A stretch of DNA of 64,000 nucleotides from Polyangiales bacterium (GTDB taxonomy: Bacteria > Myxococcota_A > Polyangia > Polyangiales > Polyangiaceae), in the NCBI GenBank assembly GCA_038231275.1, contig JBBRLQ010000001.1:224001-288000 (forward strand), in the 5' to 3' direction. A program made the position numbers and the translations under genes. The notes beneath the pieces are model-generated. The model worked only from the letters and a program-made list of their open reading frames with translations, was not told where the DNA came from and searched no databases. Positions 33,648 to 53,532 of the stretch are shown piece by piece (within the stretch, counting starts at the first letter, position 1; every line of letters begins with the position of its first letter).

Positions 33648-34457
33648 TCAGTCCGGCAGCCCGGGGCGAAACGGCGAGCCCGGTATTTTGCCCTTGGCCT
33701 GAACATAGCCGAGCGGCGCATTGAGAGGGATGCGCGGCGGGCCCGCGGCGATTGCTTTCGCTTCGAGCCGGAAGGTCTCCCGTCCCTGCTCGTCGACCTC
33801 GAGTCCGCGGACGAGGAATCGCTTGCTCAGCGAAAGCGCGTGCACCCAACGCGGTGGCGTCACGCCCATCGCCGCCATCGACGGCTCCACGAACGCGATT
33901 CCCTCGTGGATGCACGCCGTGCTGCTCGCCTTGCCTCGCTTCAGCTCGTAGACGTCGCACTCGAGCCCGAGCACCGTCTCTTTTTTTCCCGTGCTGGGTA
34001 GCGGAAAGGTCGCCGCGTCCGCCGGGTCGGGCGGGAGCTCGAAGCGGCGGTACTCCTTCTCGCCCTCTTTCGGAAAGAGGACGAGCCGGCGCAGGGCGAC
34101 GTCGACCACCGTGACGGCTTCGATCCCCTTGTAGGCGATGGGCGCGTCGTACCGAACGCGGTCGCCCTTGATCGTGAAGAAGATGCGGACGTCCTCCCTT
34201 TGGGAGGGGCCGCGCAGGCCCATACGGATCGAACCCTCCCAGCCCGGACCGGGGTCCTCAGGGAGTGGAAGCTCGGGAGGCGCGGGGAACAGCGACGCGG
34301 TGCTGGAGCTCGCGCTGGCCGACGGGGTGGCCGCGAGACCGGCATCGGCGTTCGCGACCGTCTTGTCACGACACCCCGAGCACCCGAGCGGAGAGAGAAG
34401 AAGCGTCACGAGCGCCGGGGCCGCGAAGGCCCCCACCGAAAAGGCTTTTGGGCTCAC
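33648..34457 (-). CDS. Hypothetical lipoprotein (DUF4412-like)
   Basis: Lipobox PLG-C; TGKKETVLGLECDVY motif. Confidence 0.55.
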   Translation of the reverse strand: MSPKAFSVGAFAAPALVTLLLSPLGCSGCRDKTVANADAGLAATPSASASSSTASLFPAPPELPLPEDPGPGWEGSIRMGLRGPSQREDVRIFFTIKGDRVRYDAPIAYKGIEAVTVVDVALRRLVLFPKEGEKEYRRFELPPDPADAATFPLPSTGKKETVLGLECDVYELKRGKASSTACIHEGIAFVEPSMAAMGVTPPRWVHALSLSKRFLVRGLEVDEQGRETFRLEAKAIAAGPPRIPLNAPLGYVQAKGKIPGSPFRPGLPD

Positions 34458-35482
34458 CGCTCCCCCATCATGAACTGGCGGTAGGTCATCACGTCCTCGC
34501 TCGAACCGAGCACGAGCGGCGTGCGCTGGTGGAGCGCCGACGGCTTGAGGTCGAGGATGCGCTCCGTCCCGTCGGTCGCCGCGCCGCCCGCCTGCTCGAA
34601 GAGGAACGCCATCGGGTTCGCCTCATAGAGGAGGCGCAGTTTTCCTTGAGGGCTTTTCGTGTCGGCCGGATAGACGAAGATGCCACCCTTCAGCAGCGTC
34701 CGGTGCGCGTCGGCCACGAGCGAGCCGACGTAGCGATGGCCGTATGGCCGCCCGTTCTGCTTGTCCTCTTCCTTGATCCAGTGGTTCCACTTCTGGGCTT
34801 GAGGCGTCCATCGCGCGTAGTTGCCTTCGTTCACCGAGTAGCAGCCGCCGCGTAGCGGGCAGCGGATGTTCGGCGTCGACAGGAAGAACTCGCCGACGTT
34901 CGGATCGAGCGTGAACGCGTGCACGCCGTGTCCCGTCGAGAGCACGAACACCGTGCTGGGTCCGTAGAGGGTGTAGCCGGCGGCGACGATCTCGTGGCCG
35001 GGACGGAGCGCGTCGTCGACGATGACCGTGTCCTTCGAGGTACGCCGCAGCATCGCGAAGATGGTGCCGATGCCGACGTTCGTGTCGATGTTGCTGGAGC
35101 CGTCGAGCGGGTCGAAGAGGACGACGTATTTGCCGCGCGACTCGGGGATGCGCGCCTCTTCGAGCTCTTCGCTCGCGAGGATGCCGCAGTGGCCGCTGCG
35201 CTCGAGGACGTTGATGAGCACGTCGTTCGCGAAGGCGTCGAGCTTCTGGACCTCCTCGCCCTGGACGTTGACCTCGCCGGTGTAGCCCAGCATGCCGGCG
35301 AGGCCGGCCGAGCGGACGCGCGAGTTGATGATGCGCACCGCGAGCGAGATGTGGTTGAGGAGCGAGGTAAACTCGCCGGTCGCGCCGGGCGCGGCGTGCA
35401 TGCCGTGGAGGACGTGCTCGCGGAGGGTGGTGCCGACGACGGCGGGGGGGAGGGAGCGGAGGGACGGGATGCTCTCGGCCAT
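34454..35482 (-). CDS. fbp: Class 1 fructose-1,6-bisphosphatase
   Basis: NVQGEEVQKLD, FDPLDGSSNID, RYVGSLVAD, GKLRLLYEANP. Confidence 0.95.
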   Translation of the reverse strand: MAESIPSLRSLPPAVVGTTLREHVLHGMHAAPGATGEFTSLLNHISLAVRIINSRVRSAGLAGMLGYTGEVNVQGEEVQKLDAFANDVLINVLERSGHCGILASEELEEARIPESRGKYVVLFDPLDGSSNIDTNVGIGTIFAMLRRTSKDTVIVDDALRPGHEIVAAGYTLYGPSTVFVLSTGHGVHAFTLDPNVGEFFLSTPNIRCPLRGGCYSVNEGNYARWTPQAQKWNHWIKEEDKQNGRPYGHRYVGSLVADAHRTLLKGGIFVYPADTKSPQGKLRLLYEANPMAFLFEQAGGAATDGTERILDLKPSALHQRTPLVLGSSEDVMTYRQFMMGER

Positions 35483-35526
35483 GGCCCCGCGGTTGTGCCG
35501 CGGAGGACGGTGACGGACAAGGAGCA

Positions 35527-35592
35527 ATGCGTCACGCAACCTTGCGTTACGCATAGAACGAACGTTCGTATAAATATCAACGAACGTTCGTT
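35527..35592. promoter_or_regulatory. Compound palindromic operator between divergent fbp and fbaB
   Basis: TGCGT(C/T)ACGCA at 35528 and 35543; ACGAACGTTCGT at 35558 and 35580. Confidence 0.7.
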
Positions 35593-35708
35593 TTACTACT
35601 TTTGGGCGGCGAGTGGCTGCGGGTCGAGGCAACGGCAGCCACCCTTGCCTCGCCCGTCAAAGCCGCTACCCTCGGCCTCCCTCGCAGCCATTCCGAAGGA
35701 GCTCCGCG

Positions 35709-36632
35709 ATGCCGCTGACCGATCGCACGAAGCAGATCCTCTCCTGGTACGGGTCCGACAACCCCGGCACCAAGGCGAACCTCGCCCGCCTCATGAACCA
35801 CGGCACCCTCGCCGGGACCGGGAAGTTCGTCATCCTCCCCGTCGACCAGGGCTTCGAGCACGGCCCCGCGCGCTCCTTCGCGCCGAACCCCGACGCCTAC
35901 GATCCCGAGTACCACCCGCAGCTCGCGCTCGACTCCGGGTGCAACGCCTACGCGGCACCGCTCGGCTTCCTCGAGGCGGTCGCCGACAAGTACGCGCCGC
36001 AGCTGCCGCTCATCCTCAAGCTGAACAACTCCGACACGCTCGCGAAGATCGACCAGCCGTGCAGCGCGGTCACCGGCAGCGTGAAGGACGCCGTGCGCCT
36101 CGGCTGCGCCGCGATCGGCTACACCATCTACCCGGGCTCCGGGCAGCGCAACCGCATGTACGAAGACCTCCGCGAGCTCATCGCCGAGGGGAAGTCGCAC
36201 GGCATCCCGACGGTCCTCTGGGCGTACCCGCGGGGCGCCGGCCTGTCGAAGGACGGCGAGACGGCCGTCGACGTGTGCGCGTACGCCGCGCAGATCAGCG
36301 CGCAGCTCGGCGCGCACGTCATCAAGATCAAACCGCCGAAGGACTTCATCGAGCAGGCCGAGGCGAAGAAGGTCTTCGAGAAGTACGCCATCCCGACCAA
36401 GACCATGGCCGAGCGCGTCCGCCATTGCGTGCAGAGTGCATTCAACGGAAAACGCATCGTCATCTTCTCGGGCGGCGAGGCGAAGGACACGCCGGCCGTG
36501 CTCGAGGAGGTCAAGGGGCTGGCCGCCGGCGGGGCCTTCGGTTCGATCATGGGGCGCAACGCCTTCCAGCGGCCGCGCGCCGAGGCGCTGAAGCTGCTCG
36601 CGGACGTGCAGGCGATCTTCAAGAGCGCCTGA
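35709..36632 (+). CDS. fbaB: Class I fructose-bisphosphate aldolase (DhnA/FbaB type)
   Basis: ILPVDQGFEHGP, IGYTIYPGS, WAYPRG, GAHVIKIK, GRNAFQR. Confidence 0.93.
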   Translation: MPLTDRTKQILSWYGSDNPGTKANLARLMNHGTLAGTGKFVILPVDQGFEHGPARSFAPNPDAYDPEYHPQLALDSGCNAYAAPLGFLEAVADKYAPQLPLILKLNNSDTLAKIDQPCSAVTGSVKDAVRLGCAAIGYTIYPGSGQRNRMYEDLRELIAEGKSHGIPTVLWAYPRGAGLSKDGETAVDVCAYAAQISAQLGAHVIKIKPPKDFIEQAEAKKVFEKYAIPTKTMAERVRHCVQSAFNGKRIVIFSGGEAKDTPAVLEEVKGLAAGGAFGSIMGRNAFQRPRAEALKLLADVQAIFKSA

Positions 36633-40996: not shown

Positions 40997-42844
40997 CTAC
41001 GTCGGGTTGCCGACGACCGGCAAGCGCACCGTGCCGCGCGACGTCGGGAGCGGGAGATCCTGATTCTTCGCGTAGACCGGGTGACGCCCCTTCGTGCGGT
41101 ACCACTCGGCGACGCTGGCGTTCGCCTTCATCTTCTCGATCACGTTCCGCCAGCCGACGCCGGTGTTGTACGCGCAGAAGCTGATCTCCCCCATCTGCGT
41201 GCCGTAGGGGATGATGCACATCTCGGTGCGGCGGAAATCGTAGTTGAAGAGATCCTGGAACCACATGCCGGCGACGAAGAGCAGCCGCCACTCGAATTCG
41301 GCGGCGTCGCTCTCGTACTCGCCGACCTTCGCGCCGCGGTTGCCGGTCTGGCTGAGGAACTGCTTCACGAGCTTCGCGAAGGAGTAGCCGCGCGGCGCGT
41401 GGCGGGCGTCGTAGCTCTTCATGAGGGCCAACGCGACCTGGGCGAGCGTGACCGCGCGGGGCTGCGCGCCGTCGGTGATCGTCCCGATGTCGGCGAGGAG
41501 CTGCTCGAGATCGAGGAACTTGGTGAGCGGCACCATCTCGCCCGTCTTCTTGTTCACGAACAGCACGGTGCCGATGCCGCAGTTCGGGTGGCAGCCGCAC
41601 TTCAGCGCGCCCCAGTCGGCGCGCTCGCCCATGAGCGTGTCGGTCAGATCGCTGAACGGGCCCATCGCCGAGAGCGGGAACCAGTCGCGGAGAGGCTCGG
41701 TCGCGCCGGTCTGCGCCTTCACGTCGTGCGCCAGGTGGCTCAAGGTGTAACGCTGGCGCGTGCGCTGCTCGTCGGAGATGTCCTCGTCGCGGCCGGTGAA
41801 GCTGACCGGCTGGAAGCTGACGACGGTGATCTTGTCGGCGTTGGCGATCGCGAACTCTACGATCTTGCCGACCTGGTCGTTGTTCACGCCGTTCACGACG
41901 GTGACGACGAGGACCACGTCGATCCCCGCGGCGTGGAGGTTCTCGATCGCGCGGAGCTTCACGTCGAAGAGGTTGCCGACCTTGCGGTGGCTGTTTGCCT
42001 CGTTGGTGACGCCGTCGAACTGCAGGTACGCGAGGCGGAGCCCCGCGGCCTTGGCCTTCTGCGCGAGCTCCGGGTCCTGCGCAAAGAGCACGCCGTTGGT
42101 TGCACACTGCACACAAAAATAGCCATTTTCGCGAGAGTATTGGATGGCGCGGAGGAAGTGCGGGGAGAGCGTCGGCTCGCCGCCCGAGAACTGGACGCTC
42201 ATCTGGCGGCGCGGCTTGATGGTGAGCGAGTCGTCGAGGATCTTCTGGATCTCGTCCCACTCGAGCTCGTGGACGAAGCCGACCTGGTTGGCGTCCATGA
42301 AGCAGGGATCGCACATCATGTTGCAGCGGTTCGTGAGATCCACCGTGAGGACCGAGCCGCGGCCGTACTTCACGCTCGACGAGCCGTGCTCGCGGAGGCG
42401 CGTGAGCGGCGCGAGAAAATCGCGGCCGGGGTAGAGCTGCTCGATGCGGCGAAAGAACGCGGCGTCGATGCTCATGACGTCCTCGGTCGCGCCGTGCCGG
42501 GGGCAGCTCTTCTTCATCTTCACGATGCCGTCTTCTTCGACGACCTGCGCGCGGATCTCACCGGGGCGACCTTCGGTGAGCGTCGAGAGTGCCTTCTCGC
42601 CGCTCAAGATCTGCGCGCGCACCTCCTTCACGCAGCCCGGGCAGAGCGAGTCGGTCTCGCGCGGCCAGCCGAGCTGGGGGAACGTGCGCTCGCGGCGCTT
42701 GGGGAGGGGGCCGGGAGCCCACGACGGGCTCGGCGACGGGCGCTCGAAGCGCGCGTTGTAGCGTTCGACGAGGGGCCACGCCGCGCGTGCCGCGTGGGAG
42801 AGCCCGCGCTCGGCGGCGCGGAGAACACGATCCTGGATGCGCAT
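40997..42844 (-). CDS. Radical SAM protein, tetraether synthase (Tes/MJ0619) family-like
   Basis: SLCPGC...CPRHG N-domain, [49 protein letters not shown]...SFCAYN. Confidence 0.8.
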
Positions 42845-43766: not shown

Positions 43767-44732
43767 ATGCGGGTGTCCGTGCTGGTCCTCGACGGCGTCT
43801 TCGATAGCGGTCTGTCGGTCGTGCTCGACACACTGGCGACGGCGAACGACCTGGCAGAGGGCGGTCGTAGGTCGGCGCGGCACGAGGTGACGGTGTGCGG
43901 GCTCTCGCGCTTCGCGACGACGTACCACGGCCTCCGCGTGCCGCTCGCGCCCGCCAAGGGAGGCGCGCGTCCCGACGTGGTCGTGGTGCCGGCGCTGGGG
44001 TGCAAGACGCGCGAGACGATCTTGGCGGCGCTCGATCGCCGCGACGTGGGCGACGCGTGCGATCTCTTGCGCGGGTGGTCGAAGGGAGGGGCCCGCGTCG
44101 CCGGCGCGTGCACGGCTACGTTCGTCCTCGCGCTCTCCGGCATCCTCGACGGCGGGCGGGCGACGACGACGTGGTGGCTCTCGCCGGTCTTCCGCGAGCG
44201 GTTCCCGCGCGTGACGCTCGACGAGTCGCGAATGATCGTCCAATCGTCGCGCGTCGTGACCGCCGGCGCGGCCCTGGCGCACGTGGATCTCGCGCTGTGG
44301 CTGGTGCGTCAGAGGAGCCCCGCGCTGGCGGAGGCGACGGCGCGGTACCTCGTCTTCGACGCGCGCCCGTCGCAGGCGGGCTATTCGATTCCCGATCACC
44401 TCGCGCACGCCGATCCGCTCGTCGAGCGCTTCGAGCACTGGGCAAGGCGCCACTTGACGGACTTCACCCTCGCCGACGCTGCGCGCCACGTGGGCGCGAG
44501 CGAGCGCACGCTGGAGCGCCGCATGCGGGCCGTGCTCGGGAGGTCGCCTCTCGCGTACGTCCAAGATTTGCGCGTAGAAATGGCCGTTTTTCGACTACGC
44601 ACGACGAGCGAGTCGATCGAGCAGATCGCGACGGCGGTGGGCTATGGCGATGGGGTGACGTTGCGGACGCTCCTCCGAAAGAAGACGGGCCGAGGGATCC
44701 GAGAGCTGCGCGCGCCGGTCGGCGCCGCGTGA
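43767..44732 (+). CDS. GlxA-type AraC regulator with DJ-1/PfpI domain
   Basis: ACTATFVLA, ATTTWW, VTAGAA, SERTLERR, IATAVGY. Confidence 0.9.
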   Translation: MRVSVLVLDGVFDSGLSVVLDTLATANDLAEGGRRSARHEVTVCGLSRFATTYHGLRVPLAPAKGGARPDVVVVPALGCKTRETILAALDRRDVGDACDLLRGWSKGGARVAGACTATFVLALSGILDGGRATTTWWLSPVFRERFPRVTLDESRMIVQSSRVVTAGAALAHVDLALWLVRQRSPALAEATARYLVFDARPSQAGYSIPDHLAHADPLVERFEHWARRHLTDFTLADAARHVGASERTLERRMRAVLGRSPLAYVQDLRVEMAVFRLRTTSESIEQIATAVGYGDGVTLRTLLRKKTGRGIRELRAPVGAA

Positions 44733-44873
44733 CGGGCCGATGAGCATCCACCTCGCCTTGCGCATGACGATCGGGGCGTGCGCCATCGCGGCGGCCACCG
44801 GGTGTCGTGCGTCCGAGGCGCGTCGTGCGACTCCCCCCGCGAGGTGATCCTGGGATCCGATCGCCGTTGGGCG

Positions 44874-44903
44874 TTGACGATCCCTCCGGCTCGTCTTTAC
44901 CCT
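44874..44903 (+). promoter_or_regulatory. Putative sigma-70 promoter, leaderless
   Basis: TTGACG-N18-TACCCT-N6-ATG. Confidence 0.55.
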
Positions 44904-44909
44904 CCGCAG

Positions 44910-46163
<1,254 letters not shown>

Positions 46164-47526: not shown

Positions 47527-48573
47527 TCAGCGCGCGGCGGCGGCGAGCTTCTCTTCGACGAGGATGTCCGCGATGCGGTACGTCGGCGAACGCAGCTTGG
47601 TGCTCCGTTCGGCGATCTCCAGGATCGTGTCGTAGATCTTGAGCGTGCGGTCGCGCGACACCTTCGCGTCGTACCCGCTCACTTCTTGCGCGACGTTGAC
47701 GAGCCCGCCCGCGTTGATGGCGTAGTCGGGCGCGTACAAGATGCCGCGTTGATGCAGGTCGTCGCCGTGGCGCGGCTCCGCGAGCTGGTTGTTGGCGGCG
47801 CCCGCGACGATCTTCGCCTTGAGGCGCGGGATCGTGTGGTCGTTGAGCGCGCTCCCGAGGGCGCACGGCGAGATGACGTCGCACGCGACTTCGAAGATTT
47901 GATCGAGCGGGACGACGGTTGCCTTGAACTCCCGATGCGCGCGCTCTGCCTTCAAGGGATCGACGTCGGCGACGCTGATCTTCGCGCCCGCCTCCGCCAG
48001 CTCCTTGCACAGGTGGTAGCCCACGTGACCGACGCCCTGAATGGCGACGTGCACTCCGTCGAGCGACGTCTTGCCGAGCTTGTGCTTCACGCACGCCTCG
48101 ATGCCGCGGCGCACGCCGAGCGCCGTGAACGGCGACGGATCTCCGGAGCCGCCATTCTTCACGTCCACGCCGGTGACGTGCTTGGTGGCCGTGCGAATGA
48201 CCTCCATATCCTCGAGGCCGGTGCCGCTGTCCTCGGCGGTGATGTAGTGGCCGCCGAGCCCGTCGATGAAGCGCCCGAACGCGCGAAAGAGCGCGACGCG
48301 ATCGAAGTGCTGCTTCGGCCGGACGATCACGCTCTTGCCGCCGCCGTGCGCGAGACCGGCGAGCGCAGCTTTGTACGTCATGCCGCGGGCGAGGCGGAGC
48401 GCGTCAATGAGCGCCGCTTCGTCGGTGTCGTACGGAAGGAAACGGCACCCGCCGAGCGAAGGGCCGAGACGCGAGTCGTGGATCGCCACGATGGCCTTCA
48501 GGCCCGTCGCCTTGTCGAGGCCGAAATGGACCTCTCCGTAGTCGTATGTCTTGAGGTGACCGAAGAGATCCAC
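47527..48573 (-). CDS. Glu/Leu/Phe/Val dehydrogenase (leucine dehydrogenase-like)
   Basis: LGPSLGGCR, GMTYKAA, GGGKSV, TAEDSG, IQGVGHVG, GAANNQL. Confidence 0.92.
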   Translation of the reverse strand: MDLFGHLKTYDYGEVHFGLDKATGLKAIVAIHDSRLGPSLGGCRFLPYDTDEAALIDALRLARGMTYKAALAGLAHGGGKSVIVRPKQHFDRVALFRAFGRFIDGLGGHYITAEDSGTGLEDMEVIRTATKHVTGVDVKNGGSGDPSPFTALGVRRGIEACVKHKLGKTSLDGVHVAIQGVGHVGYHLCKELAEAGAKISVADVDPLKAERAHREFKATVVPLDQIFEVACDVISPCALGSALNDHTIPRLKAKIVAGAANNQLAEPRHGDDLHQRGILYAPDYAINAGGLVNVAQEVSGYDAKVSRDRTLKIYDTILEIAERSTKLRSPTYRIADILVEEKLAAAAR

Positions 48574-48593
48574 GTGGGGTCCGTTCTTTTCGC

Positions 48594-49646
48594 TCAGGGA
48601 TGGCCGGCCGGCATCTGCATGCCCGGTGGCATCTGCATGCCCGGCGGCATCTGCATGCCCTTCATCGCCGCCGACGGATCCTTCGCGGCGCCCGCGTCGC
48701 CGGACGGCTTCTGGAACTTCTTGTCGTCCGCCGTGGCCCAGTCGCCCGGCGACACTCCGACGATGTAGATGATCGGATCGGCGTCTTTCATGGCGTAGCG
48801 CGCGCTTCCCTGCGACGTCTTGCCGACCTTGAGGACGTAGTGGCCCGCGTTGTCCTTCAGGTTGATCTCGAGCGTCGCCTCCGGCGCGTCGAGGCCGGTG
48901 TCCGCGGCCGTCTTCTTCTCGTCGGCGAAGTCGTCGGCGTTCAGCATCTTGAAGACGCGGAGGAGATCTTTCACCTTCTCCTCGTCGAAGCGCTCGATCG
49001 GCTTGTTGTTGAGCGTGCCTGCCCAGTGCTCGCCCTTCGTGAACGAGAACTTTCCGGTCTTGTTGGTGAGGAGCACGTTCGTCGCGTTCGCGTCGTCGAA
49101 CTTGAGCATCTCCTTCTCGCGCCACTCGTTGGCGGTGCGGTTGTAGAGGTAGCTCGAGTAGCCGGTCGCGCCGTACACGGCGGGCTTGCCCTCGACCATC
49201 ATCATCTCGCCCCGGCTGCCGGTCTTTCCGAACCAGTTGTCCGACTTCTTGTCGGCGCCCTTGAACGCCTGCACGTGCAAGGCGAGCGCGGGGGTGAGGT
49301 TGTATTCCTTCTTCAGCCCGTCATCGACGGTCGACGAGATGACCTCCTTGGCCTTGATCTCCTTCATGTTGTCGATGAGGGATTTCACGCTCGTCTGATT
49401 GGCGAGGGCCTTCACGGGCTTCGTCACCATCCACTTGTCGCCCTGCTTCTCGAGGACGACGTCGCCCTTGTCGCCGTTTGTGATCGACACCTTGTCGACG
49501 TCGTCGGGCGTCTTGATGTCCGGCAGGTCGGTCTGCGCGGAGGTCGGGGCGCCCTTCTTGGCGTCCTGGTTCATCTGCCGATAGACGAGGCCCGAGAGGG
49601 CCGCCAGAACGACGACCCCGATGACGAGGCTTTTTTCACGAGACAT
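48594..49646 (-). CDS. DUF4340 domain protein
   Basis: N-terminal TM, duplicated KEYNL/DTGL..P modules, last gene of a Gld-type ABC cluster. Confidence 0.75.
   Translation of the reverse strand: MSREKSLVIGVVVLAALSGLVYRQMNQDAKKGAPTSAQTDLPDIKTPDDVDKVSITNGDKGDVVLEKQGDKWMVTKPVKALANQTSVKSLIDNMKEIKAKEVISSTVDDGLKKEYNLTPALALHVQAFKGADKKSDNWFGKTGSRGEMMMVEGKPAVYGATGYSSYLYNRTANEWREKEMLKFDDANATNVLLTNKTGKFSFTKGEHWAGTLNNKPIERFDEEKVKDLLRVFKMLNADDFADEKKTAADTGLDAPEATLEINLKDNAGHYVLKVGKTSQGSARYAMKDADPIIYIVGVSPGDWATADDKKFQKPSGDAGAAKDPSAAMKGMQMPPGMQMPPGMQMPAGHP
48610..48660. repeat. 18-bp tandem repeat (~3 copies) encoding GMQMPP
   Basis: ggcatctgcatgcccgg(t/c) units. Confidence 0.85.
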
Positions 49647-49696
49647 CTGGATGCTCCGTCTTGTGCTGCGTCTTGCTGTGAAGGACGGCCCGAGGA

Positions 49697-51520
49697 TCAG
49701 GCCAGAGACACGTTGGCGCGCGCGCTCATGCGCATGCGCCAGCGAAGGACGCCGTAGAGGGCGAAGAGGAGCGGGACGCCGAGGATGAGGATGCCCTCGA
49801 CCCAGCGCTGCTGGATCTTCTTGGCGGTCTTCATCTCGTCGTCGCGCTTCTTCAGCGCCTCGTCGCTGTCTTCGGCGAACGTGGGCTTGCTCACGTCGCC
49901 GTAGACGAGGCTCGGCTCGCTCAGGATCTTCGCGCTGACGGCGAGGAGATCGGTGTCGCCCGTGAGGTAGTCGAGCGTGTTCTTGAACGCGAGGATGGTG
50001 CTGGTGAGCGCCTGCTGCGCGTACGGACCGGCGAGCTGCTGGAGCTGCTCGTCGCCGCCGCCGCCCGGCATCATCATCTGCATCTGCCCCATGTCGGGCC
50101 CGTTGCCGGCGCGCGCGAACGGGTTCGCGAGGAACTGCGACGACGCGATGACGAGCACGCGCGCCGACTTCACGCTCTTCGCGGGCGCCTCGATGCCCAT
50201 CTTGTCGCCGGCCGGGAACGCCGTCGCCAGCGTGCCCTCCGCCGACGCCGCGATGGGGAACTGCTGCCACTGCCCCTTGGGCTTCCACGACTTGAAGGGC
50301 TTCAGGTCGACCGCGTCGCTCGTCTCGGCGATCGATCGCGGCGTGGTGCGCGCGAGGATCTTGAGCGTCGCCTCCGACTGCTTCTCCTTCTTGAGCCCGA
50401 CGCTCGACGGGAAGGGGAACGACAGCTGCGGAATGCGGAAGAACGCCGGGAAGCCGGTGTCGAGCAGCTGCTCGTCGCCGGTGAAGCGCAGATCGTCCTG
50501 CACGTCGGCCATCTGCGGGAAGCGCGCGCTGGCGATGCCGCCCTGGGTCATCATCTGCACGCGGAACGAGCGACCGAAGTCGAGGATCACGTCCTTGTGG
50601 AGCTCGATGCCGTACCCGTCGAGGAGCTTGTCGAGCCCGTGTGCGTTCAGGATCGCGTTCATCGTCGCGTCGGACGCCTTCACGTTGGCGGCGCCGGCGA
50701 TGACGACGAGCGCCTTGCCCTTCATCACGAACTGGTCGATGCGGCGCAGCTCCTTCTCGGTGATGTCCTTGTTCGGCTGCGTGATGATGAGGCCGTCGAT
50801 GGACTCGTCCACGTCCGCGTCGCCGCCCTTCAGGTCCACGTCCTGGAGCTGATAGAAGGGGAAGTTTTGCGTGATGATCTGCTGGATGTTGGGCTTGCCC
50901 TGCGCCGCCGGGATGAGGTTCGCTTCCGTGAGCTTCATCTCGTCGTGACCGGTGAGGACACCGATCTTGTGCTTCAGGCTGTCGCCACGATCGCGGACCT
51001 CACGGACCTTGTTCGTGATCCAGAACTCCAGGCCGTCGGTGCGGTCCGGCGGGAGGAACTTGATCGCGTCCTTCTCCGAGCCGTACTTGAGGACGAGGCC
51101 CATGAAGCCCTGCGTGACGGCGGCGGCGTTCTCGGTCTCGCTCGCTTCGCCGAACGGCTGCTCGACGAGCCCGGCGTCCTTGGCCGCCTTCTTCTGCTCC
51201 TCGTCCTTCGCCTCGATGATGGCGTAGTCGAAGTGCCCGCCGCTGTTGTCCTTGTAGTCCTGGAGCAGATCGCGAAGGTCGCGCACGAACGCGTCGAGCT
51301 TGGGCAAGCCCTTCGTGACGTACGCGTCGACCTGCATGTTCTGCTTCATCGACTTGAGGAGCGAGCCGCTGCCCTTGGAGAGCGTGAAGCGCTCGTTCTT
51401 CGTGACGTCGATGCGCTTGTACCCGCCCAAGGCGGACAGGGCGTTCACGGCGACGAGGATCGCCGCCATGACGAGGAGGAGGGCGCCGCTCTCGGTCGCG
51501 GCTTTTGCACGTCGTTCCAT
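49697..51520 (-). CDS. GldG-family ABC auxiliary component
   Basis: RIDVTKNERFTLS, GVLTGHDE, IDQFVMKG, N- and C-terminal TMs. Confidence 0.85.
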   Translation of the reverse strand: MERRAKAATESGALLLVMAAILVAVNALSALGGYKRIDVTKNERFTLSKGSGSLLKSMKQNMQVDAYVTKGLPKLDAFVRDLRDLLQDYKDNSGGHFDYAIIEAKDEEQKKAAKDAGLVEQPFGEASETENAAAVTQGFMGLVLKYGSEKDAIKFLPPDRTDGLEFWITNKVREVRDRGDSLKHKIGVLTGHDEMKLTEANLIPAAQGKPNIQQIITQNFPFYQLQDVDLKGGDADVDESIDGLIITQPNKDITEKELRRIDQFVMKGKALVVIAGAANVKASDATMNAILNAHGLDKLLDGYGIELHKDVILDFGRSFRVQMMTQGGIASARFPQMADVQDDLRFTGDEQLLDTGFPAFFRIPQLSFPFPSSVGLKKEKQSEATLKILARTTPRSIAETSDAVDLKPFKSWKPKGQWQQFPIAASAEGTLATAFPAGDKMGIEAPAKSVKSARVLVIASSQFLANPFARAGNGPDMGQMQMMMPGGGGDEQLQQLAGPYAQQALTSTILAFKNTLDYLTGDTDLLAVSAKILSEPSLVYGDVSKPTFAEDSDEALKKRDDEMKTAKKIQQRWVEGILILGVPLLFALYGVLRWRMRMSARANVSLA

Positions 51521-51528
51521 GGCTTATC

Positions 51529-52422
51529 TCAGCTCCACTTCCGGCTCTCGAGGGAGCGGAAGGCGGCTAGCAGACAGATGATCGTGATCGACAGGAAGTA
51601 GATGACGGCGCGGGTGTCGATGAGGCCGCGCGAGAACGGAACGAACCGCGTCTGGAAGGACACGAACGAGATCGCGTCGCCCACCGGGCCGTGCACGAAC
51701 TCGACGATCGAGCCGATGAACCACAGGAGCGCGAGGACGGCCGCCGTGATGAAGAACGCGACGATTTGGTTCTCGGTGAAGCTCGAGAACATCATCCCGA
51801 CCGCGATGCCGGCGCCGCCCATGAGGAGGAGGCCCAGGTAGCTGGTGGTCACCGGACCCCAATCGAGCGGGCCCATGTGCCAGGGCCACATGAACATCGC
51901 GATCGGGTAGATGAGCGTGCAGAGGAGGAGCACCGCCGTGAGCCCCAGCGCGGCGAAGAACTTTCCGAGGATGACCTCGCTGTCCTTCACCGGCATCGTG
52001 ATGAGAAGCTCGATGGTGCCGCTGCGCTTCTCTTCGGCGAGCGCGCGCATCGTGAGGAGCGGCAGCACGAGGAAGCTGAGGAGAATGGGGAGGCTGCCGA
52101 CGCCGTCGAAGAGGCGCGACACGCTCGCGCGATCGACCTGCCAGAAGCCGAAGAAGAAGAACCAGACGCCCACGATGAGGAGCGTGAGGCACACGACGAC
52201 GTACGCGACGATCGAGTCGAAGTACGCCTTGAACTCACGTCGCGTGATCGTGAGGATGTTCCGGAGGCCGGCGCCGGGTTTGCGCTCGAAGACCTTCGGC
52301 TGGGCAGTGGCCGGCAGCTCCTTCTTGGACTTGCCGTTCGACTCGTCGCTCTCTTCTTCCTCGTGCTCCGCCGCCTCATCGGCCTCGTGCACGTCGTCCC
52401 TGAGCTCTTCCGTCGTTGCCAT
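51529..52422 (-). CDS. GldF-like ABC permease
   Basis: REFKAYF, TMRALAEEKRSGTIELL, ILGKF, TENQIVA. Confidence 0.88.
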   Translation of the reverse strand: MATTEELRDDVHEADEAAEHEEEESDESNGKSKKELPATAQPKVFERKPGAGLRNILTITRREFKAYFDSIVAYVVVCLTLLIVGVWFFFFGFWQVDRASVSRLFDGVGSLPILLSFLVLPLLTMRALAEEKRSGTIELLITMPVKDSEVILGKFFAALGLTAVLLLCTLIYPIAMFMWPWHMGPLDWGPVTTSYLGLLLMGGAGIAVGMMFSSFTENQIVAFFITAAVLALLWFIGSIVEFVHGPVGDAISFVSFQTRFVPFSRGLIDTRAVIYFLSITIICLLAAFRSLESRKWS

Positions 52423-52425
52423 GGC

Positions 52426-53532
52426 TCAATCCTTGTCCTTCGCGTCGCTGTCGTCGTCTGATTCCTCGGTCTCTTCCTCGGTCTCCTCGTCCTCGTCCTC
52501 GTCCTCGTCTTCGTCGGCGCCTGCGTCCAACGTGCGGTTGCGGCGCGCGTCGCCGATGGTGAGGTGACGGAAGACGTCCTCGAGCGTCTGCGCATCGCGG
52601 TGCAGCTCGAGGAGGACCCAGCCCTTCTGAACGATCAACTGGAAGAGCTCGGCGCGGAGATCCACGCCCTCGTCGGTCGAGAGCTCATAGGTGTGGGCGC
52701 GCTCGTCGGTGGGGAGCTCGGTGATCTTCTTCACGCCGTTGATCTTGCCGAGAGCCGCCTCGACCTCGGCTTGCTTCGGCGGCTGGCCCTGCCCGCGGTA
52801 CGGGGTCGAGCCGGCCGACTCCTGCACGCTCACGACGTAGCGGACGCGGCCGCTCTTCGCGCGGATCTCGTCGAGCGGGCCGTCGGCGACGACGCGGCCC
52901 TTCGACACGATGATGGCGCGCGCGCAGGCGATCTCGACCTCGGAGAGGTTGTGGGTCGAGAGGAGGACGGTGCGCTCCTGGCCGATCTGCTTGATGTAGT
53001 CGAGGAACTCGGCCTTCTCGTTCGGATCGAGATCGCTCGTCGGCTCGTCGAGGATGAGGATCGGCGGATCGTGGATGAGCGCCTGGCCGAGGCCGACGCG
53101 CTGGCGGTAGCCGTGCGACAGGTGCCGGATCTCTTTGCCGAGCACCTGCGCGAGGCCGCACACCTCGACGACGCTGCGCGCGCGCTTGCGGAAGGTCGCG
53201 TCGTCGAGCTGGCGAAGATCGGCGGCGAACTTCAGGTACTCGTACACGCTCATCTCGAGGTAGAGCGGCGCGCGCTGCGGGAGGTAGCCGAGGCTCTCTC
53301 GCACCGCGAGCGGGTCGTCGAACACGTCGAACCCGTTGATCTTCGCCGTGCCTCCCGTGGGGGAGATGAAGCACGTGAGGATGCGCATCGTGGTCGACTT
53401 GCCGGCGCCGTTCGGCCCCAGAAATCCGACGACCTCGCCCCTGCGAACCTCGAAATTGATCTTGTCGACGGCGCGGAACGAGCCGAAATTCTTCGTAAGA
53501 TCGTTCGCGTAGATCATCACGTCCGTGGACAT
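52426..53532 (-). CDS. GldA-like ABC ATP-binding protein
   Basis: GPNGAGKST, LSHGYRQR, ILDEPT, STH. Confidence 0.92.
   Translation of the reverse strand: MSTDVMIYANDLTKNFGSFRAVDKINFEVRRGEVVGFLGPNGAGKSTTMRILTCFISPTGGTAKINGFDVFDDPLAVRESLGYLPQRAPLYLEMSVYEYLKFAADLRQLDDATFRKRARSVVEVCGLAQVLGKEIRHLSHGYRQRVGLGQALIHDPPILILDEPTSDLDPNEKAEFLDYIKQIGQERTVLLSTHNLSEVEIACARAIIVSKGRVVADGPLDEIRAKSGRVRYVVSVQESAGSTPYRGQGQPPKQAEVEAALGKINGVKKITELPTDERAHTYELSTDEGVDLRAELFQLIVQKGWVLLELHRDAQTLEDVFRHLTIGDARRNRTLDAGADEDEDEDEDEETEEETEESDDDSDAKDKD

Follow-up and report, generated by a model that had tools for sequence, protein, structure and literature searches.

Described tail-coupling enzymes and bacterial Tes homologues

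The closest described system is GDGT-MAS, or Tes, of Methanocaldococcus jannaschii (MJ0619; PDB 7TOL and 7TOM). As set out in PMC9433317, this archaeal enzyme binds ester-linked E. coli phospholipids in its lipid pockets, its M439A and Y459F/L variants remain active, and the roles of its other metal sites are given as unclear. Bacterial Tes homologues in general are already in print: PMC8941075 proposed in 2022 that they serve brGDGT synthesis, and also points out that the termini of iso-fatty acids are the same in structure as phytanyl termini. Among the bacterial proteins proposed for brGDGT synthesis, the homologues of Solibacter usitatus and Koribacter versatilis are reported to share 40-42% identity with MA_1486 (Zeng 2022; Chen 2022), and S. 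usitatus, chosen for its Tes homologue, is stated to produce brGDGTs (bioRxiv 10.1101/2022.04.07.487437). Reviews up to 2026, in their accessible portions, present the bacterial Tes homologues as bioinformatic detections only.

The sole bacterial enzyme with demonstrated tail-coupling activity is Mss of Thermotoga and Thermoanaerobacter (Sahonero-Canavesi 2022), a radical SAM enzyme that converts two fatty acyl tails to diabolic acids. Mss is described as only remotely related to Tes and so far comes from anaerobes only (PMC13159169). The same paper records iso-diabolic acid in almost all members of acidobacterial subdivisions 1, 3, 4, and 6, yet in its Table S21 just 3 of the 14 producers of iso-diabolic acid are credited with a Tes homologue, at a homologue threshold of 30% identity; the subfamily that we describe below stands at 28-30% to a Tes equivalog. 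For myxobacteria, our literature search turned up no record of membrane-spanning lipids, whether diabolic acids or tetraethers.

A Tes-like gene in a Polyangiaceae genome

The window (the whole stretch of DNA that we analysed, 64,000 nucleotides) contains an intact open reading frame with an ATG start, which we call P0001 and whose features are collected in Table 1. GC contents at its codon positions 1, 2, and 3 (0.63, 0.44, and 0.94) resemble those of adjoining genes, its codon usage is host-like, and a search of the host genome found a single copy. An earlier reading made from the sequence alone had picked out the motifs SLCPGC, CPRHG, CNMMCDPC, and M-x15-C-x3-Y followed by FC, all of which are present, and had likened their layout to that of Tes/GDGT-MAS, a likeness that near full-length homology and the fold bear out.

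Table 1. Positions in the window of the P0001 gene and its features
Feature	Position	Strand	Basis or remark
Tes/GDGT-MAS-like radical SAM gene (P0001)	40997..42844	(-)	615 aa, stop codon included
N-terminal extension, residues 1-60, subfamily-specific	42665..42844	(-)	model and 83-row conservation
Rubredoxin-like zinc-ribbon domain, residues 62-125	42470..42661	(-)	Pfam Zn_ribbon_HMPTM, E 2.8e-12
Segment at canonical [4Fe-4S]N position, residues 126-165	42350..42469	(-)	no Cys/His ligands
Radical SAM core, residues 166-385	41690..42349	(-)	Pfam Radical_SAM, E 2e-20
CNMMCDPC: C174-x3-C178-x2-C181	42302-42325	(-)	radical SAM cluster motif
C-terminal auxiliary-cluster and lipid-pocket domain, residues 386-585	41090..41689	(-)	7TOL/7TOM match covers domain
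CGCHPNCG: C416-x-C418-H419-x2-C422	41579-41599	(-)	conserved columns
M527, W528, C543, Y547, C557 (M527-x15-C543-x3-Y547, then FC)	41174-41266	(-)	conserved columns

HMMER aligned residues 97-583 of P0001 with PDB 7tol_A (E 8.8e-70), and the NCBIfam Tes model NF045702 matched residues 64-572 with 354 bits (E 1.2e-105); these E-values exclude chance as the source of the likeness. The AlphaFold (AF2) model of the protein has a pLDDT of 89.7 and a pTM of 0.91, and Foldseek matched it to 7TOM and 7TOL (E 1e-41, target-normalised TM 0.87-0.88, 544-551 columns), the next fold being MoaA with a TM of 0.5. Domain order and the overall four-domain fold are likewise those of GDGT-MAS, and BLASTP gave about 30% identity to a high-scoring Tes equivalog. 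The TrsS radical SAM (seleno)protein model (NF045646) has the zinc ribbon and radical SAM part in common with P0001 (residues 96-382), but its 215 bits compare with a cut-off of 490 and the match leaves out the C-terminal domain. P0001 is almost certainly a member of the Tes/GDGT-MAS family and mechanistic class, and we predict from its sequence that the product is an active radical SAM enzyme of that family.

P0001 and GDGT-MAS have in common a rubredoxin-like C-x2-C...C-x2-H site, a radical SAM cluster of the form C-x3-C-x2-C, the 5'-deoxyadenosine contacts, the C-terminal cluster cysteines, and equivalents of Met439 and Tyr459. In the zinc ribbon, SLCPGC (C68, C71) and CPRHG (C114, H117) match C9, C12, C33, and H36 of GDGT-MAS and are kept in 80 of 80 loci. 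The radical SAM core carries a GGEP motif, and its residues F182, Q345, S348, and R352 align to the contacts Phe106, Gln268, Ser271, and Arg275, a correspondence mapped by hand from the 7tol_A alignment onto residues named in PMC9433317; Arg210 of GDGT-MAS aligns to K288. In the C-terminal domain C422, C543, and C557 align to conserved cysteines of GDGT-MAS, and from their conservation we infer that they are the ligands of the C-terminal cluster. M527 and Y547, 20 residues apart, align to Met439, the labile Met of the C-terminal cluster, and to the nearby Tyr459, which have the same spacing in the archaeal enzyme (PMC9433317); this agrees with the earlier suggestion that the Met and Tyr correspond to active-site residues of that enzyme. 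P0001 and all 80 genome_contigs loci preserve the columns of ligands and active-site residues; some divergent members, namely P0125, P0127, P0131, P0135, and P0154, have lost cysteines of the C-terminal cluster or of the radical SAM cluster.

Unlike GDGT-MAS, P0001 begins with an N-terminal extension of 60 residues, and its zinc ribbon contains an insert (~25 residues) between the two knuckles. The extension, earlier described as amphipathic-looking, proved real: in the AlphaFold model, where pLDDT in this region is 83-97 per block, residues 3-32 form an amphipathic helix with a hydrophobic moment of 0.55-0.74, where the 95th percentile for the whole protein is 0.44. P0001 has no predicted transmembrane segment. 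The helix is followed by a segment, P-x-W...PL-x-K...LG-x-PR-x-TDS, that is conserved in 83 subfamily rows, and the canonical rows of alignment A1 are without the extension.

The absence of the CPxxCGLC block, remarked on from the sequence, also held up. In the HMMER alignment with 7tol_A the archaeal GCPYDCGLC..NH faces gaps and a stretch of 12 residues in P0001; all four [4Fe-4S]N ligands (C73, C77, C80, and a His in GDGT-MAS) are missing, and residues 126-165 have conserved PGRD, HG-x-S, and GRG in their place. The motif is missing from 80 of 80 subfamily loci. It is not universal in the canonical group either, since 2 of 21 canonical rows are without it, including P0192 (584 bits on the Tes model), and one more has a variant spacing. 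P0001 differs from GDGT-MAS further in the extra cysteines C416 and C418 and in a Trp (W528) in place of the His after the Met; all three residues are invariant in the 80 loci, while among the 21 canonical rows C416 occurs in two and W528 in one.

Placement, distribution, and genomic setting of the subfamily

The curated cut-off of NF045702 is 450 bits, and P0001 scores 96 bits less at 354. Other subfamily representatives reached 239-414 bits on this model or fell under the 1e-70 listing threshold. Canonical-type representatives carry CPxxCGxC and most pass the cut-off (16 of 20 at 463-645 bits, the other 4 at 348-447 bits); 3 of 14 control genomes exceeded it. In unrooted trees, in which groups were set by presence or absence of the N-cluster motif, a branch with 100% SH-aLRT parted 38 rows without the N cluster from 21 canonical rows, and the same split with the same support came from the whole alignment and from residues 166-575 alone. 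Placement relative to the Tes clade, which the sequence-only reading had named beforehand as a refuting test, thus came out against strict membership, with P0001 on the far side of that branch. A score under the cut-off and a tree position apart from the Tes-scoring sequences both speak against counting P0001 as Tes in the strict sense; on sequence grounds P0001 is a member of a distinct bacterial Tes-like subfamily and not a canonical Tes.

By reported identity the Solibacter and Koribacter proteins stand nearer to archaeal Tes than P0001 does, and on that identity we tentatively assign them to the canonical group. The homologue of Edaphobacter aggregans (32% identical according to PMC8941075) is probably a member of the present subfamily, because an Edaphobacter MAG encodes a protein that shares 88% identity with an acidobacterial member. 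We found no description of the subfamily's architecture or range, and Supplementary Fig. 4 of PMC8941075 and Supplementary Fig. 5 of PMC9433317 may show clusters of myxobacterial proteins or at the level of the subfamily; the text supplement of PMC8941075 contains no myxobacterial names.

The subfamily spans Polyangiaceae, many Acidobacteriota, and Gemmatimonadota. Among the genomes sampled its gene occurs in 21 of 29 from the window's own family, the Polyangiaceae, and in about 140 of 301 Acidobacteriota (~46%); the remaining 371 Myxococcota yielded one carrier (none of the 370 outside two carrier families). Cultured myxobacterial carriers include Polyangium fumosum DSM 14668 and Pendulispora albinea (P0101), whereas a homologue search for acidobacterial carriers gave MAGs only. 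The nearest relatives of P0001 outside its family are acidobacterial, near-identical environmental copies of the subfamily number thousands, and ESM Atlas matches fell in radical SAM clusters only, mostly acidobacterial ones. The near-confinement to one myxobacterial family, the acidobacterial nearest relatives, and the brGDGT proposal of 2022 are points that go beyond the earlier reading.

Identity of the gene between genera of Polyangiaceae is 65-90%, and within the subfamily it spans 57-90% over three phyla. No biosynthetic cluster surrounds the P0001 gene, whose setting differs between genera, and there are no lipid-related flanking genes within the window. Candidate operon partners were set aside, synteny of the window reaching no further than its own genus and a single relative at 80% identity. 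No neighbour gene was common to 9 Polyangiaceae loci, and at the 80 genome_contigs loci the only shared neighbours were specific to a lineage; apparent neighbour "clusters" at these loci were mostly antisense ORFs within the gene itself. Of the 80 loci, 6 have a gene of the fatty-acid desaturase family immediately downstream, and 10 have a second radical SAM gene on the upstream side. We also rejected RNA-library contigs as expression evidence: they came from 4 soil or rhizosphere runs with 85-99% likeness and had almost nothing on the flanks, DNA carry-over is possible, and, being confined to the gene's most conserved parts, they derive from relatives and say nothing on P0001's own expression.

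The host genome, which is 94% complete, has a PlsA/Ger-type ether-lipid gene (BcrAD_BadFG+DUF2229), cut by a contig end, and an ether-lipid gene of the CarF/TMEM189 type (Lipid_desat). The host of P0001 is a bacterium in which we found no PcrB/GGGPS-family match, a further point of difference from GDGT-MAS.

Predicted role and rival readings

Tail-to-tail C-C coupling of bacterial lipid chains, dependent on SAM, appears to us the most likely role of P0001, with about an even chance of being correct. We infer it by analogy with GDGT-MAS, because the accessible portions of the literature gave us no case of a bacterial Tes homologue that has been assayed. Besides homology, fold, retained cofactor sites, and the conservation of the gene, the role is favoured by the desaturase and radical SAM neighbours at some loci, by the ether-lipid genes of the host, by the binding of ester-linked phospholipids in GDGT-MAS, and by brGDGT production in S. 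usitatus. As a peripheral membrane protein the enzyme would take up two glycerolipids by their tails, which would enter its hydrophobic pockets. Cleavage of SAM would produce a 5'-deoxyadenosyl radical that takes a hydrogen from the terminal methyl of one chain, the radical of this first chain would be parked on the C-terminal cluster through an S-C bond, and cleavage of a second SAM would activate the second chain, upon which the two carbons would join. The substrates would be bacterial chains, most plausibly iso-branched C15-type acyl or alkyl chains because their isopropyl end matches that of phytanyl, and the products would be membrane-spanning lipids of the iso-diabolic-acid or brGDGT type.

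Some observations count against tail-to-tail coupling. P0001 scores under the Tes cut-off, is missing one of four metal sites, and lies outside the Tes-scoring group; the gene is found in less than half of the sampled Acidobacteriota, compared with iso-diabolic acid reported from almost all members of subdivisions 1, 3, 4, and 6; Tes homologues are listed for few of the producers in Table S21; myxobacteria have no diabolic acids or tetraethers on record in our search; and no neighbour gene is conserved across lineages, nor does anything lipid-related flank the gene in the window.

It is possible, if rather unlikely in our view, that the shared fold and radical machinery act on long hydrophobic chains with a different outcome, such as macrocyclisation within one molecule only, a Gms-like mid-chain cross-link, a stable C-S product, or coupling of a non-membrane lipid or secondary metabolite. 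The extra C416 and C418, the Trp for His after the labile Met, and the loss of the N cluster would then mark a changed specificity, and the clear separation of the subfamily from Tes-scoring sequences, the invariance of C416, C418, and W528 together with the rarity of C416 and W528 in canonical rows, and an acidobacterial distribution patchier than the reported production of iso-diabolic acid would all fit. Polyangiaceae are also rich in secondary metabolism, but the gene stands outside any biosynthetic cluster in a setting that varies between genera. Moreover, P0001 retains Met, Tyr, and all three Cys along with the 5'-deoxyadenosine contacts, and N-cluster loss and the Trp are compatible with Tes chemistry, because the Tes-scoring P0192 has both.

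Many members bear the JGI name 7,8-dihydro-6-hydroxymethylpterin dimethyltransferase, which the Pfam domain name Zn_ribbon_HMPTM echoes. We consider this activity highly improbable, as no carrier of the subfamily is known to make methanopterin and Pfam detected no cobalamin or other methyl-donor domain in P0001. The name is inherited from an older assignment of MJ0619 that Lloyd et al. were unable to corroborate (PMC9433317); in their view the hydrophobic tunnel is an unlikely place for a pterin, which is bulky and hydrophilic. It is just as hard to credit that P0001 is a decaying or electron-transfer-dead remnant whose activity went with the N-terminal cluster: one metal site is gone and the five divergent members named above are also without C-terminal cluster or radical SAM cysteines, but the reading frame is intact with host-like codon bias, identity holds at 57-90% over three phyla with every remaining ligand invariant in the 80 loci, the model is of high confidence, and near-identical environmental copies run to thousands.

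Returning to tail-to-tail coupling, we tentatively suggest that the three-cofactor subfamily may be the missing lipid synthase of this type in aerobic soil bacteria, behind the iso-diabolic acid and brGDGT cores of Acidobacteria. Acidobacteria are without Mss, and the subfamily would, if this is true, supply their coupling enzyme; earlier surveys would have overlooked it because it shares only ~28-30% identity with archaeal Tes. Replacement of the surface-exposed N cluster by the amphipathic extension could then be an adaptation to oxygen, the Polyangiaceae gene would have come from an acidobacterial-type donor, and membrane-spanning lipids of Polyangiaceae would escape routine fatty-acid profiling. 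Proxies for past temperature and pH that are in wide use rest on brGDGTs, and if the subfamily does carry out the coupling, its gene would tell producers apart as a concrete marker. The subfamily also serves as a natural experiment, showing which cofactors GDGT-MAS might do without.

Gene, motifs and predicted fold

The Tes-like radical SAM gene of the window is real and strongly conserved (see table), and its GC content at codon positions 1/2/3 (0.63/0.44/0.94) is like that of the neighbouring genes in a genome of ~70% GC. All motifs named by the sequence-only reading (the zinc-ribbon, radical SAM and C-terminal blocks) were found in the translation, and the Met-Tyr spacing it gave held as well: M527 lies 20 residues before Y547, the distance that also separates Met439 from Tyr459 in GDGT-MAS, the archaeal tetraether synthase MJ0619 (PMC9433317). 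Pfam matched the query to Radical_SAM (E 2e-20) and to a zinc ribbon named after MJ0619. The top NCBIfam model was the Tes equivalog (354 bits, residues 64-572), which scored below its curated cut-off of 450, and TrsS came second (215 bits). GDGT-MAS (7TOL/7TOM) was the sole close solved structure (E 8.8e-70, query residues 97-583). Structure prediction, a check that the earlier reading had suggested, was done with AlphaFold2 from an input alignment of 41 sequences and gave a confident model (mean pLDDT 89.7, pTM 0.91) that matched this fold: Foldseek placed 7TOM/7TOL first (E 1e-41, target-normalised TM 0.87-0.88), the next fold being MoaA (TM about 0.5).

We paired residues by hand count along the pairwise alignment, with the numbering of PMC9433317. 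The rubredoxin-like ligands C9, C12, C33 and H36 of GDGT-MAS correspond to query C68, C71, C114 and H117; its radical SAM cysteines and Phe106 to C174, C178, C181 and F182; Gln268, Ser271 and Arg275 to Q345, S348 and R352; Arg210 to K288; Met439 and Tyr459 to M527 and Y547; and its conserved C-terminal-domain cysteines to C422, C543 and C557. Judged from this alignment, all residues tied to the coupling chemistry of GDGT-MAS are retained in the query. At the block for the N-terminal auxiliary cluster (N cluster, motif CPxxCGxC) the aligned query stretch is 12 residues long.

Features of the window and of related loci
Feature	Location	Strand	Remarks
Tes-like radical SAM gene	window 40997-42844	-	intact ORF, 615 codons, ATG start
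Zinc-ribbon site of query	C68-x2-C71 + C114-x2-H117		
Radical SAM motif of query	C174-x3-C178-x2-C181		
C-terminal Cys block of query	C416-G-C418-H-P-N-C422		
C-terminal residues of query	M527, C543, Y547, C557		
YjbQ/UPF0047 gene	flanks Tes-like gene		divergently transcribed
AraC/DJ-1-type regulator	window 43767-44732		flanks Tes-like gene; adjoins collagen-repeat ORF
Collagen triple-helix repeat ORF	window 44778-46163	+	flanks Tes-like gene; 461 aa, Pfam Collagen E 4e-23, three stretches
ABC ATPase, ABC-2 permease, ABC_transp_aux/DUF7088, DUF4340	window 48594-53532	-	four-gene run
Glu/Leu/Phe/Val dehydrogenase	window 47527-49125	-	mechanical ORF
Fructose-1,6-bisphosphatase (-) and DeoC/LacD-family aldolase (+)	window 34454-36632	-/+	divergent
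PlsA/Ger-like BcrAD_BadFG+DUF2229 gene	window's genome (G000), contig 44, bases 2-2194 (L111)		cut by contig start
Lipid_desat gene, CarF/TMEM189-type	window's genome, outside Tes-like neighbourhood		
Upstream radical SAM gene	L047:1541-2791	+	416 aa, same strand as Tes-like gene, directly adjoining
Fatty-acid desaturase family gene	L036:4449-5798	+	Pfam FA_desaturase E 4e-10

Relatives without the N-cluster motif

The CPxxCGLC block reported missing by the sequence-only reading was indeed absent, and in an alignment of 31 full-length relatives from our representative library (whose 520 representatives reach E 1e-30 or better) the query's nearest sequences likewise lacked CPxxCGxC and had in common about 60 additional residues at the N terminus and an insertion that separates the two zinc-ribbon knuckles. 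All of these scored under the Tes cut-off (239-414 bits, or beneath the listing threshold); of 20 canonical representatives scanned, i.e., those grouped as motif type, 16 scored 463-645 bits and four 348-447 bits. When 185,579 species genomes were scanned, 596 relatives came up; in the 80 best of these by similarity to the query the motif was absent from 80/80 loci, while every other ligand column, as well as C416, C418 and W528, was kept in 80/80, a uniformity that comes partly from selection since all are best matches to the query. The description of the extension as amphipathic was borne out by the model, in which residues 3-32 form a confidently predicted helix with a hydrophobic moment of 0.55-0.74 (protein-wide 95th percentile, 0.44); no transmembrane segment was predicted in the query.

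In an unrooted maximum-likelihood tree of 59 rows, built by a short ('quick') search and with groups assigned by the N-cluster motif itself, 38 motif-less and 21 canonical rows were split by a branch with 100% SH-aLRT, and the split recurred in an equally unrooted, short-search tree of residues 166-575 only, which excludes the trait's own columns. The proposed membership of the Tes clade did not survive, as this branch parts the query's group from the canonical rows. The motif was also missing from two canonical rows, P0192 (584 bits) and P0256, so N-cluster loss alone is compatible with a Tes-level score; one further canonical row had variant spacing. We conclude that the query is a known kind of enzyme in a variant architecture, rather than a canonical Tes. 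No description of the subfamily's three-cofactor architecture, N-terminal extension or Acidobacteriota/Polyangiaceae range was found in the searchable text of the literature.

Five representatives (P0125, P0127, P0131, P0135 and P0154) form a divergent subfamily branch that has lost further ligands, some lacking C-terminal cluster cysteines and P0127 two radical SAM cysteines; from their sequences these may be pseudo-enzymes or have yet another function. Another, P0142, is apparently frameshifted.

Distribution and genomic setting

The closest named proteins were from Polyangiaceae MAGs and Pendulispora albinea (80% identity), and the Polyangium fumosum DSM 14668 copy was 68% identical to the query. 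The window's genome (9.28 Mb, 164 contigs) holds a single copy and no other close paralogue. Among 40 relatives, subfamily-level matches (65-90% identity) occurred in 11 of 24 same-family genomes, one match being split across two contigs, and in two genomes from two other families of the order; three more matches were weak (31-32% identity). Of 400 other Myxococcota, evenly sampled, 22 were carriers, namely 21/29 genomes of the window's family and 1/1 of another family of the same class; at E 1e-40 or better, the remaining sampled families gave 0/370. The best 80 of the 596 loci (55-65% identical to the query, full length) were mostly from Acidobacteriota (Acidobacteriaceae, Bryobacteraceae, Solibacteraceae, Vicinamibacterales, Pyrinomonadaceae, Sulfotelmatobacter and Thermoanaerobaculia), with six labelled Gemmatimonadota and a few bearing other labels. 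Of 301 Acidobacteriota genomes, sampled around one carrier, 178 gave a hit of E 1e-40 or better and 140 one at subfamily level (best E 1e-150 or better, 52-65% identity; 137/298 without the carriers G579, G457 and G482, flagged unpublished), and several had two copies.

In both of the unrooted trees described above, the 11 Polyangia rows made up one side of a branch (96% and 94% support) within a 27-row set shared with Acidobacteriota and Gemmatimonadota (99% and 96%). This position and the gene's restricted occurrence among Myxococcota suggest that it was transferred into the Polyangiaceae lineage, and its host-like codon usage suggests that the transfer is old; with unrooted trees, we infer both direction and timing.

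Several ORFs without family match also flank the gene in the window, and no lipid-related gene was found near it there. Synteny with the window extended no further than its own genus and a single relative of 80% identity, and no neighbour was general to all of the best 80 loci. A second radical SAM gene, on the same strand, lies directly upstream in 10/80 (six labelled Gemmatimonadota, four Acidobacteriota); the protein at one such locus, L047, matched no NCBIfam model above cut-off (best AhbD, 90 bits) and may act as a lipid-modifying partner. Immediately downstream in 6/80, all Acidobacteriota, lies a gene of the fatty-acid desaturase family, and a QueG-like gene is present in 10/80, seven of them labelled Bryobacterales or Bryobacteraceae. 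Two ether-lipid hallmarks lie elsewhere in the window's genome, a PlsA/Ger-type gene, only partial because a contig start cuts it, and a Lipid_desat gene, and no PcrB/GGGPS-family match was found in this 94% complete assembly; any lipid substrate is thus expected to be bacterial-type, possibly ether-linked.

Elsewhere in the window, the four-gene ABC run resembles GldA/F/G-type gliding or export systems in its layout. Its DUF4340 ORF is overlapped by the dehydrogenase ORF, so a later start is probable for one of the two; the mechanical ORF ends of the bisphosphatase and aldolase genes also overlap.

Proposed function

Bacterial Tes homologues are already published: 456 were reported in 2022 (PMC8941075), the SSN of the structural paper included some (PMC9433317), and they occur in 281 bacterial MAGs from the Black Sea, Myxococcota not being named among carriers in the accessible part of that report. 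In a 2026 review they still figure as bioinformatic detections, and our literature search found no functional work on them from 2023 onward.

According to PMC9433317, GDGT-MAS spends two SAM molecules per C-C bond, holds the radical of the first substrate at its C-terminal cluster in the form of an S-C bond, and has hydrophobic pockets for one tail from each of two lipids, in which E. coli ester phospholipids were also bound; the authors there describe the roles of two surface cofactors as unclear, and the cluster absent in the query is one of this pair. The terminal isopropyl of iso-fatty acids is the same as that of phytanyl, for which reason the bacterial homologues were put forward as enzymes for brGDGTs (PMC8941075). 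Given these points, the most likely function by analogy is that the subfamily enzyme would join bacterial lipid chains tail-to-tail, to which we give an even chance. Counting against a coupling role, the subfamily occurs in about 46% of sampled Acidobacteriota, a mismatch with iso-diabolic acid, reportedly near-universal in acidobacterial subdivisions 1, 3, 4 and 6 (PMC13159169); the main rival, a related yet different radical reaction on lipid chains, we regard as rather unlikely. The JGI name, pterin methyltransferase, is very unlikely to fit; it traces to an assignment that PMC9433317 failed to corroborate.

In the view of Sahonero-Canavesi et al., the pathway of Acidobacteria is a different one; a Tes homologue (at least 30% identity, E 1e-50 or better) was present in only 3/14 iso-diabolic-acid producers (PMC13159169, Table S21). 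By BLASTP, identity to a 645-bit Tes equivalog was 28% for an acidobacterial subfamily member and 30% for the query, so the subfamily may have been overlooked by that 30% threshold, which we offer as a lead from sequence comparison only. Edaphobacter aggregans is blank in the same table, versus a 32%-identical homologue per Zeng et al. (PMC8941075). The table also gives Koribacter versatilis two Tes homologues with accession numbers nine apart, which suggests two paralogues close on the chromosome.

Our literature search turned up no account of diabolic acids or tetraethers from myxobacteria, and to our knowledge routine fatty-acid methyl ester profiles are blind to C30 diacids. Cultured carriers exist, so the function is directly testable.
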